A stretch of 41,081 nucleotides of DNA. Origin: a virus. Lineage: Duplodnaviria > Heunggongvirae > Uroviricota > Caudoviricetes. Where the stretch lies: IMG/VR virus record IMGVR_UViG_646206259_000005, one strand, 5' to 3'. A program made the translations under genes and the position numbers. This document shows positions 25,735-41,081 of this stretch, one piece after another; position 1 is the stretch's first letter, and each line of letters begins with the position of its first letter. The notes under the pieces were generated by a model that was not told the DNA's origin, did no database searches, and saw only the letters and a list, made by a program, of their open reading frames with translations.

Positions 25735-25810
25735 TGGTGCTGGTTAACGGACTTGAACCGCTACCCATTCGCTTACAAGGCGACCGCTCTACCATTGGAG
25801 CTAAACCAGC
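25735..25810 (-). tRNA. tRNA-Thr (anticodon UGU)
   Basis: Hand-folded cloverleaf from reverse complement GCTGGTTTAGCTCCAATGGTAGAGC...CTTGTAA...GGTTCAAGTCC...AACCAGCACCA; 76 nt, acceptor stem perfectly paired, encoded CCA. Confidence 0.6.
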
Positions 25811-25815
25811 ATATT

Positions 25816-25890
25816 TGGCGGGACAGCGTGGACTCGAACCACGATAAGAAGGTTAACAGCCTTCCGTAATGACCTTTATACGACTGACCC
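25816..25890 (-). tRNA. tRNA-Asn-like (anticodon GUU), with one acceptor-stem and one D-stem mismatch
   Basis: Hand-folded: anticodon loop CTGTTAA and T-arm CGTGG-TTCGAGT-CCACG as in E. coli tRNA-Asn; 75 nt with encoded CCA; T4-T69 mismatch. Confidence 0.5.
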
Positions 25891-32288: not shown

Positions 32289-32570
32289 TCAGGCCTCGAA
32301 GAATTCGCCGTTCTTCGGGGCTTTTTCTTTTGTCAGGTAATCGGCAAGCCGCTTAGTCAATTCAGCCATTTCATCGTCTTCGATTCCGTATTCCAGAACA
32401 GCCAGCATCATGCTTACCTGCGAGAAGAAACCATTCTTCCATCGGCTTACCTGGTATTCAGGAACCCCCATCGCGCGAGCGAATGTCTTCTGCCCCATCA
32501 GTGCCAGTTTGTTCAGCAAGGCCGACTCGATGCGAGCCGCTTTCTTGCTTTTAGTTGCAATAGTACCCAT
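32289..32570 (-). CDS. cII: CII-like transcriptional activator
   Basis: [15 protein letters not shown]...QVSRWK...MLAVLEYG closely resembles lambda CII. Confidence 0.85.
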
Positions 32571-32686
32571 AGATAATTTCCTTAATGATTAGATAGAGTT
32601 GGCTTCGCAAAGAAACGCAAAACCATAGAGATTTGTTTCTGGTAATGCCCTTTTTCAGGGCGGTGATGTGTAAGAGCGTTAATAAC

Positions 32687-40022: not shown

Positions 40023-40306
40023 TGGTCTCCTTCGCGAAATATACGATTATTGACTGGATAGCATTCATTCAGGTTTTGCTCATCTGGTTTTATATGGCTT
40101 ACAGGAGTGGACAGTGGATTGTCAGTGTAGCCTGTAGCAATGGATGGCGTTGGTGGAACCGGAAGAATAAAAAAGCGCTGGCCTTGGATTCGTTTTACGA
40201 AGCATTCAATCTTAACAGCCTTAAGCCTGGTTCTGTCGTTGTAGTCACCACTCAAAGCGGCATGACGATACAAATTCACAAGCCAAAGGAGGAAGGTCGT
40301 GGCTAA
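40019..40306 (+). CDS. Hypothetical small membrane protein
   Basis: 95 aa with hydrophobic N-terminal half. Confidence 0.4.
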   Translation: MMVSFAKYTIIDWIAFIQVLLIWFYMAYRSGQWIVSVACSNGWRWWNRKNKKALALDSFYEAFNLNSLKPGSVVVVTTQSGMTIQIHKPKEEGRG

Positions 40307-40583
40307 CCTGCAACTTGCCGTCAAAGGTGAATACTTCGATGCCATGATTCGCGGAGAGAAAACGGAAGAGTATCGCCTGTGTAATGACTACTGGAATAAG
40401 CGAATTATGTTCCGCGAGTATGACCGCCTGATTATCACGAAGGGATATCCGAAGCGCGACGATTCCAGCCGCAGAATTGATGTTCCGTATGGTGGATATG
40501 AAATCAAGACAATCACACATCCGCACTTCGGCGATAAACCGGTAAAGGTGTTCGCTATAAAGGTGAATATCGACAATGAATGA
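40299..40583 (+). CDS. ASCH/DUF3850-like small protein
   Basis: KGEYFDAMIRGEKTEEYR motif resembling ASCH-like domains. Confidence 0.4.
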   Translation: MANLQLAVKGEYFDAMIRGEKTEEYRLCNDYWNKRIMFREYDRLIITKGYPKRDDSSRRIDVPYGGYEIKTITHPHFGDKPVKVFAIKVNIDNE

Positions 40584-40655
40584 TAATCCTCGCACTCGCG
40601 GGGATTTCTTTTATCTGAACTCGCTACGGCGGGTTTTGTTTTATGGAGATGATAA

Positions 40656-40823
40656 ATGCACTTCCGAGTCACAGGTGAATGGAATGGAGAGCCATTCAAC
40701 AGAGTTATCGAAGCAGAGAACATCAACGACTGCTATGACCACTGGATGCTGTGGGCGCAGATAGCACATGCAGACGTAACTAATATTCGAATTGAAGAAC
40801 TGAAAGAACACCAAGCCGCCTGA
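40656..40823 (+). CDS. Small hypothetical protein (55 aa), not in ORF track
   Basis: Hand-translated MHFRVTGEWNGEPFNRVIEAENINDCYDHWMLWAQIAHADVTNIRIEELKEHQAA with GGAGA RBS; overlaps alternative-frame ORF 40576..40764. Confidence 0.35.
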   Translation: MHFRVTGEWNGEPFNRVIEAENINDCYDHWMLWAQIAHADVTNIRIEELKEHQAA

Positions 40824-40838
40824 TGGCGGTTTTTTATT
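40815..40838 (+). terminator. Rho-independent terminator upstream of xis-like gene
   Basis: GCCGCC-tgat-GGCGGT then TTTTTTATT. Confidence 0.5.
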
Positions 40839-40845
40839 GCCTGAT

Positions 40846-40861
40846 TTGCAGGTTCGATTCC
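40846..40861 (+). other. 16-nt tRNA T-arm-like motif TTGCAGGTTCGATTCC (matches argW T-arm as I recall it); candidate att core or att remnant
   Basis: Direct read; comparison to argW is from memory and unverified; flanks do not complete a tRNA. Confidence 0.3.
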
Positions 40862-40880
40862 CTATTCGGAGATAGCACTC

Positions 40881-41081
40881 ATGCAACACGAACTACAACC
40901 TGATTCACTGGTTGATTTGAAATTCATCATGGCCGATACTGGCTTCGGTAAAACCTTCATCTATGACCGGATTAAGTCCGGCGACCTGCCAAAAGCCAAA
41001 GTTATCCACGGGCGAGCAAGATGGTTATATCGTGACCATTGTGAATTCAAAAATAAGCTCTTAAGCCGCGCCAATGGGTAA
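40881..41081 (+). CDS. xis: AlpA/Xis-family excisionase-like DNA-binding protein
   Basis: 66 aa; TG...IYDRIKSGDLPKA...GRARWLYRD pattern like AlpA/Vis excisionases; last gene of leftward early operon. Confidence 0.7.
   Translation: MQHELQPDSLVDLKFIMADTGFGKTFIYDRIKSGDLPKAKVIHGRARWLYRDHCEFKNKLLSRANG

Follow-up and report, generated by a model that had tools for sequence, protein, structure and literature searches.

The stretch of DNA analysed here (the window; 41,081 nucleotides, IMG/VR record IMGVR_UViG_646206259_000005) is a CUS-3/phiv205-1-like, P22-like prophage in argW, cut exactly from the start codon of intS to the stop codon of torI (Table 1). At both ends its best counterparts are phages of the P22-like genus Lederbergvirus: a 1700-nt query from the int end was 100% identical to phiv205-1 and 99.9% identical to CUS-3, a 1282-nt query from the xis end was 99.2% identical to phiv205-1, and the window stands to CUS-3 as a mosaic relative. 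The integrase gene shares 96–100% nucleotide identity with int of CUS-3, phiv205-1, HK620 and Sf6, and its counterpart in UTI89 is annotated intS; it is the first prophage gene beside attL, with attL and argW upstream, beyond the window. The xis-like gene at the other end is torI of RefSeq E. coli genomes, the excisionase (recombination directionality factor, RDF) gene of the KplE1/CPS-53 cryptic prophage, which adjoins dsdC. Its translation is identical to TorI of K-12 and UTI89 and gives a weak Pfam match to HTH_17. The window therefore carries what defines a KplE1-type module, namely an IntS-type integrase with an arm-binding domain and a TorI RDF, encoded at opposite ends. Two further features of the prophage lie outside this module. 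ARAGORN found tRNA-Thr(TGT) and tRNA-Asn(GTT) in tandem at 25735–25890 (− strand), between the Q-like region and the lysis genes, and in Kapi1 two tRNAs likewise lie directly ahead of the lysis module (PMC8787464). The K1-capsule O-acetyltransferase gene neuO is located at 1398–2195 (− strand) and contains a heptanucleotide repeat (2044–2192) of 21.3 copies of AAGACTC/GAGTCTT, through which the frame is open, encoding (RLKTQDS)x7 within a product of 265 aa, so that the window copy is in the phase-ON state; the neuO repeat of CUS-3 has 19 copies and no CDS is annotated there.

Table 1 Features of the integration module and of the torI leader in the window.
Feature	Position	Strand	Description or basis
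intS-type tyrosine integrase gene, 385 aa	1..1158	+	ORF; Pfam Arm-DNA-bind_3, Phage_int_M, Phage_integrase
Intrinsic-terminator-like hairpin and T-run	40813..40839	+	Terminator scan; closes the upstream ea-region genes
TTGC-N5-TTGC, TTGCCTGATTTGC	40837..40849	+	HK620 annotation: cII-binding site of a 'phage integration' promoter
16-mer TTGCAGGTTCGATTCC	40846..40861	+	argW T-arm: T-stem 5' strand, T-loop, first two bases of the T-stem 3' strand
Conserved box core GGTTCGATTCC, consensus GGTTCGATTYC	40851..40861	+	TorI-type pentamer GTTCG at 40852–40856
Second pentamer-like ATTCG (40864–40868) abutting the Shine-Dalgarno GGAGAT (40868–40873)	40864..40873	+	Leader alignment
torI (xis), 66-codon ORF, RDF of the KplE1-type module	40881..41081	+	ATG at 40881; the stop is the last base of the window

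The first-pass annotation had described int as starting at base 1 and the xis-like gene as ending at the last base, and both were seen (int 1–1158; ORF end 41081). Since the two genes would abut perfectly in a circle, it had proposed either a circularly permuted phage genome or a prophage trimmed at gene boundaries, and had held that the window alone could not decide between the two. The second of these stands and the first does not, the matter being settled by the attP of HK620, which derives from virions, by the junctions of phiv205-1 and by the absence of the core from the window. In the circular HK620 record, which represents virion DNA, 249 bp separate the stop codon of hkaC (xis) from the start of int, with the 16-bp core annotated within them; the abutment of xis and int in the window is therefore an artefact of trimming, and ~249 bp of attP DNA are missing between torI and intS. 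The core of attP is CTGCAGGGGACACCAT(T), between torI and intS, as is already known for the KplE1/HK620/Sf6 module: an identical 16-nt core has been published for KplE1 (PMC2951348), and in Kapi1, Sf6, HK620 and KplE1 attP is situated between int and xis, which places the two genes at opposite ends of the prophage (PMC8787464). The core begins 73 nt after the torI stop, in phiv205-1, HK620, K-12 and the IMG/VR loci alike, and ~160–176 nt before the intS ATG. Because it lies between the two genes in the circular phage, it falls just outside both window ends in the prophage, and CTGCAGGGGACACCAT was absent from the window even when three mismatches were allowed.

The four att sequences agree with this placement. 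The empty yfdC-argW-dsdC locus (attB) reads ...GGTTCGATTC-CTGCAGGGGACACCATT-cttgtgtttatccc. In phiv205-1, where argW, attL and int lie on one side and xis, 73 nt, attR and dsdC on the other, attL reads argW...CTGCAGGGGACACCATT-TATCAGTTCGCTCC with 159 bp to the int ATG (UTI89 is alike), and attR reads torI stop, 73 nt, ...AGTAGATGT-CTGCAGGGGACACCATT-cttgtgtttatccc, with dsdC beyond. The attP of HK620 runs from the torI (hkaC) stop through 73 nt to CTGCAGGGGACACCAT and then TTATCAGTTCGCTCC... to int. These junctions also bear out argW as the integration target of this phage group, as had been stated at first pass. Across 80 IMG/VR loci that encode an identical TorI, the sequence after torI is constant through CTGCAGGGGACACCA and then passes into several differing bacterial or phage flanks, and in genomes with an empty site the match to the right junction begins at the 17-mer core and not before it. 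torI is the last prophage gene, and attR begins within its 3' end; excision in vitro requires no more of this side than a 135-bp attR beginning within the final 20 nt of torI (PMC3509656). We regard the location of the att site outside the window and the trimming of the window at gene boundaries, taken together, as nearly certain. The torI stop is the exact contig end in 29 of the 80 IMG/VR prophage contigs, as it is in the window, which means that, in this very common prophage family, predictions trimmed at gene boundaries systematically lose attR (and attL). In the attP region, beyond the window, the left arm is flanked on both sides by an inverted repeat, CCCCTGC...(18 nt)...GCAGGGG (positions 1760–1790 of locus L104, with equivalents in L092 and L108–L118). 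The tRNA acceptor strand of Edwardsiella reads AGGGAAC, and there the upstream copy of the inverted repeat becomes TCCCTGC; this compensatory change suggests that selection maintains either a hairpin or two paired protein sites.

The feature that drew attention to this end of the window is a 16-mer (Table 1) that occurs once in the whole window, even with three mismatches allowed. It had been described as identical to the T-arm of argW, and the match proved exact when argW was read both beside phiv205-1 and in an unoccupied argW locus: the gene reads GTCCTCTTAGTTAAATGGATATAACGAGCCCCTCCTAAGGGCTAA-TTGCAGGTTCGATTCC-TGCAGGGGACACCA, with GGGCTAA immediately 5' of the 16-mer. By simple arithmetic, one given 16-mer is expected ~2e-5 times in 2 x 41 kb and any 16-mer of a 75-nt tRNA ~1e-3 times, so that with at most ~1e-3 chance matches expected per window the identity to argW is not due to chance. 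The 16-mer lies, as described at first pass, near the xis start and right after a terminator, 19 nt before the ATG at 40881 and downstream of a hairpin (40813–40832) and T-run. This terminator element is also found in lambdoid phages with other int/xis modules, and it is here that homology to HK022, HK106 and JEP4 stops. The flanks do not complete a tRNA, in keeping with the earlier statement that no intact attR is present: the bases that follow the 16-mer are CTATTCGG and not TGCAGGGG, the sequence diverges from argW after base 16 and so holds no tRNA 3' fragment that would restore the gene, and ARAGORN placed no tRNA at the 16-mer, the tandem pair noted above being the only tRNAs in the window.

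Implicit in the first-pass annotation was the idea that the 16-mer marks the att site or is a remnant of it. This idea finds no support, since the core lies elsewhere, ~295 bp away and with xis in between; the check that it had proposed, alignment to the argW locus and its junctions, places the core past torI and not at the 16-mer. The strongest form of the idea, that the 16-mer is itself the att core and that recombination with argW takes place inside TTGCAGGTTCGATTCC, has its only support in one database entry. The CUS-3 record (CP000711.1) labels the same 16 bases, in the same place as in the window, 'attL core' and 'attR core' (positions 1–16 and 40192–40207) and ends there, its last base corresponding to window position 40861, and the repeat is genuine in that the T-arm of argW stands at the other end of the prophage as a 16-bp direct repeat. 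The sequence of the 16-mer nevertheless differs from CTGCAGGGGACACCAT(T), and in every relative examined phage DNA (torI) continues past it, where a prophage boundary would be expected. Our check of CUS-3 was based on UTI89 and on other strains with 100% identical prophage ends. The UTI89 prophage is 100% identical to the final 12.2 kb of CUS-3, and in it torI follows 19 bp past the point at which the record ends and is itself followed by dsdC. Moreover, attL has no torI between argW and intS, the attP of HK620 links torI to intS via CTGCAGGGGACACCAT, the bacterial flank begins after the CTGCAGGGGACACCAT core and not after the 16-mer, and the published biochemistry uses the CTGCAGGGGACACCAT core (PMC2951348, PMC3509656). 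The argW-16mer-torI junction was found in 0 of 5426 E. coli genomes. We therefore find the 16-mer hardly tenable as the att core, and the same count led us to reject a deletion of the prophage by recombination between the argW T-arm and the box, for which that junction is the expected product. The 'att core' label of CUS-3 appears to be a mis-assignment, the record having seemingly been delimited by the T-arm/box repeat. Judged by these alignments, CP000711.1 probably lacks its excisionase gene torI and 290 bp of phage DNA, the real attR core lying 293 bp further on, and both the att annotation and the right end of this reference record are probably wrong. Since the 16-mer lies outside the 135-bp attR that is sufficient in vitro (PMC3509656), it is not needed for that excision reaction.

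The 16-mer occurs in HK620, K-12 KplE1, phiv205-1 and CUS-3, and it is exact in 75 of the 80 loci with an identical TorI, with one mismatch in each of the other five (singleton variants), while neighbouring positions carry common polymorphisms in the same loci (ATTGCC/ATTACC in ~20%, CCC/CCA in ~10%). A further 37 IMG/VR loci, chosen by the N-terminal coding sequence of torI alone, had the exact box in 35 cases. For comparison over greater distances, TorI homologues were gathered at 60–86% identity, with loci taken from assemblies plus one genome per species, and nine leaders were aligned (E. coli, Enterobacter, an Atlantibacter-like contig, Serratia fonticola, Citrobacter, Pantoea sp. BAV, Edwardsiella, Pantoea stewartii and Hafnia). 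Throughout this alignment GGTTCGATT followed by YC is invariant and stands 5–6 nt before the Shine-Dalgarno GGAG (13 nt in Serratia). The resulting box, GGTTCGATTYC, is kept by TorI homologues of 70–85% identity in Enterobacter, the Atlantibacter-like contig, Serratia, Citrobacter, Pantoea, Edwardsiella and Hafnia, ~20–30 nt ahead of the torI start and just 5' of the Shine-Dalgarno; the 5' flank of the box, the spacer between box and Shine-Dalgarno and the sequence further upstream are not conserved in the nine leaders. At the second pentamer-like position, ATTCG is replaced by GTTCG, GTCCG or GTACG in other genera. One locus (L164, IMGVR_UViG_2847085930_000001, − strand) carries tandem boxes, CAGGTTCGATTCCCGT-CAGGTTCGATTCCC, 16 nt apart and ~60 nt upstream of torI.

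Eleven nucleotides are thus invariant in at least six diverged enterobacterial lineages in which the flanks have diverged, which argues that the box is under selection, and on these alignments we consider this very probable. The box is missing, with TorI and the core present, from Cronobacter, Dryocola, Tatumella, Rouxiella, Arsenophonus, the Pantoea wallisii group and Proteus, and because these box-less lineages share the core and TorI, the box is dispensable for recombination. We accordingly describe it as a selected yet dispensable cis element of the torI-attP-intS module. The 16/16 identity to argW seen in E. coli resolves into the box of 11–13 nt plus TTG, three matches peculiar to the E. 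coli lineage. The new element in these observations is the short T-loop-like box conserved before torI, whereas the prophage, the integrase, TorI and the att site were already known; the box is unmentioned in the openly readable literature on the KplE1-type module, and a full-text search for GCAGGTTCGATTCC gave no paper. The possibility that the box tracks the T-stem of the host tRNA was rejected: hosts of the Edwardsiella type have GCAGG/CCTGC and their phages ACAGG...CCTGT, and the tRNA of Proteus has ACAGG/CCTGT while the Proteus phages are without the box. In Proteus hauseri and its relatives (L101–L103, L123) the same two genes are laid out differently, the TorI homologue overlapping a convergent IntS-type integrase gene with a tRNA-Arg(CCU) beyond int.

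Four further accounts of the element were weighed, of which the first concerns a promoter. The 16-mer could lie within a cII-activated promoter like lambda P_I, with TTGC-N5-TTGC as the cII box (its second TTGC being the first 4 nt of the 16-mer) and the rest serving as spacer and -10. HK620 carries the annotation of a cII site and 'phage integration' promoter over this stretch, and HK106 and JEP4, which have lambda-type modules, show a genuine P_I box, TTGCGTGTAATTGC, at the same position after the same terminator; TTGC-N5-TTGC is also more frequent in the window than expected, with 9 occurrences against 3.3. The spacing, however, is N5, whereas the boxes in this phage's own cII region have N6, and a lambda-type arrangement of TTGC-N6-TTGC around a -35 element was not found at the 16-mer. 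The first TTGC reads TTAC in ~20% of close relatives, TTGCCTG is part of the terminator module upstream (Dryocola has it joined straight to the Shine-Dalgarno, with no box), and no TTGC repeat accompanies the box in Edwardsiella, Hafnia, Serratia and Pantoea. The conserved bases of the box are unlike -35 or -10 hexamers, and a scan of 40300–41081 for sigma-70-like promoters returned none, so that a cII-dependent promoter is very unlikely to explain the element. Canonical TTGC-N6-TTGC boxes are present in the cro/cII region at 32545–32558 (+ strand) and 32607–32620 (− strand), and these are likely the phage's real cII-dependent promoter sites.

A second account takes the 16-mer for a non-functional relic of the tRNA, left when an ancestral attP was split by the insertion of torI or when excision went astray. 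Its appeal lies in the geometry, as argW has the 16-mer next to the core (with a 1-base overlap) and the phage keeps their order and orientation; in addition, conservation of the torI-attP-intS module begins on the left with the box, which has been lost in some lineages. A relic would be expected to decay, yet the 11 nt are invariant in at least six independent lineages in which nearby non-coding bases are saturated with change. Aberrant excision would leave tRNA DNA beside the core, with torI deleted, and not tRNA DNA upstream of torI. A tRNA 3' end split by the insertion of xis was discarded because a degenerate T-loop, TTCGATGT, directly abuts the left of the core in the attP of most other genera. 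In these genera the left arm of attP reads TTCGATGT-N-TGCAGGGG; its tRNA-like part is thus contiguous, and the box is therefore a second, separate copy. The occurrence of a degenerate T-loop in attP also suggests that the T-loop region is contacted in recombination, a point in favour of the protein operator considered below. Overall we judge the relic improbable.

Thirdly, the box might act at the RNA level, within the leader of the torI mRNA, where it would mimic a T-arm or pair with the Shine-Dalgarno and so control translation or processing. It is located inside the leader, 6 nt 5' of the Shine-Dalgarno, and UUCC-GGAG pairing is possible in all leaders. In Edwardsiella a perfect hairpin, GACAGG-TTCGATTC-CCTGTC, encloses the box, and Hafnia shows changes on both sides of the outer pair. 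This T-arm-like hairpin is imperfect in Hafnia, however, and absent in E. coli; the leaders of E. coli, Citrobacter and the Atlantibacter-like contig can form two T-stem pairs at most. The RNAalifold consensus of the leaders reached -0.8 kcal/mol with no compensatory pairs, and the long-range pairing predicted from an alignment of leader, torI and attR involves protein-constrained codons and showed no covariation. No Rfam family scored above its gathering threshold, the best match being STnc130 in antisense (24 bits against a threshold of 55). This match to a Salmonella sRNA family is full-length, spans window 40804–40931 (− strand) antisense to the torI leader and start, and derives mostly from the terminator hairpin, so that it is probably not meaningful. 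We consequently give a role of the box in the mRNA little weight.

The account that we favour on balance, with a modest degree of confidence, is that of a trimmed argW prophage in which the box would serve as an operator for the module's own proteins. The lack of covarying RNA structure in the leaders counts in support of a protein operator. Panis et al. defined five TorI sites in attL, I1–I5, by the pentamers GTTCG, GATCG and GTCCG, and showed that TorI represses transcription of intS via I4 and I5 (PMC2951348); they also argued that excision by this module is controlled chiefly through the RDF gene. The GTTCG of the box stands in an I4-like context, xGGTTCG (I4 being TGGTTCG), and could in this way offer a recognition site to TorI. 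We infer that ATTCG at 40864–40868 may be a second TorI-type pentamer. At the same time, the box is identical to the tRNA-side (B) arm beside the attB crossover, which IntS must recognise. In the proposed mechanism the box would be a DNA operator of the recombination proteins of the module, and TorI or IntS bound there would tune the expression of torI, whose product decides excision. In attL of phiv205-1 the TorI pentamers and the T-loop GTTCG of the tRNA lie on one strand (L004, 1059–1180); the argW T-loop GTTCG, 31 nt before I1, is possibly a sixth TorI-type site, on the bacterial side of the core.

Several observations weigh against this account or restrict it. The box does contain a pentamer of the TorI type, yet the two strands of the window together hold 132 of these pentamers, and one by itself is weak evidence. 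The distance from the box to the second pentamer-like sequence is 12 nt, out of phase with the spacing of 10 or 20 nt between the I sites, the box is missing from several lineages that share the core and TorI, and the weak UUCC/GGAG anti-Shine-Dalgarno pairing is compatible with a role at the RNA level. Against TorI as the sole ligand, 11 nt are invariant in the box and the pentamer alone at TorI sites elsewhere; since 11 rather than 5 nt are held constant, binding of TorI by itself does not explain the pattern, and recognition by IntS, by IntS and TorI together, or an overlapping RNA constraint on the box are possible. Taken together, sequence comparison gives an operator function of the box, with TorI and/or IntS as its ligand, a chance that approaches even. 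A more elaborate version seems unlikely, if conceivable: the box would be a mimic of attB, a copy of the T-loop arm of the target tRNA kept before the excisionase gene, and IntS and/or TorI bound to it, perhaps looping the gene through a bridge to the arm sites just past torI, would set the level of the directionality factor. Were the mimicry real, the decision to excise would be coupled to occupancy by the recombination proteins, adding a previously undescribed autoregulatory layer to a widespread enterobacterial integration module. Were the box simply an operator, autoregulation of the RDF would be added to a model system for integrase/RDF control.

Set against known systems, the window is closest to the module of KplE1 (CPS-53), HK620, Sf6 and CUS-3, with 96–100% nucleotide identity in the integrase and an identical TorI. 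The leader, including the 16-mer, is in K-12 KplE1 and HK620 as it is in the window, and the order torI-attP-intS is shared; the sole difference from the KplE1 module is the missing 249 bp with the core and arm sites. For CUS-3, the 'att core' label is unsupported and torI is omitted from the record. The putative TorI site in the box resembles the I sites in that its GTTCG is preceded by G, as in I4, and its strand sense is that of torI and intS. It differs in that I1–I5 form arrays phased at 10 or 20 nt, whereas the box is one site, or two sites 12 nt apart, and in that five bases are conserved at the I sites of the att arm as against eleven upstream of torI. The lambda P_I promoter, whose cII box (TTGC-N6-TTGC) lies within xis or ahead of it, occupies the same place after the same terminator and before the excisionase gene, but the region of the 16-mer departs from it in having N5, a polymorphic first repeat and no repeats in other box-bearing genera. 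The box is a short, strongly conserved cis element placed before torI, a gene proposed as the main control point of excision in this module.
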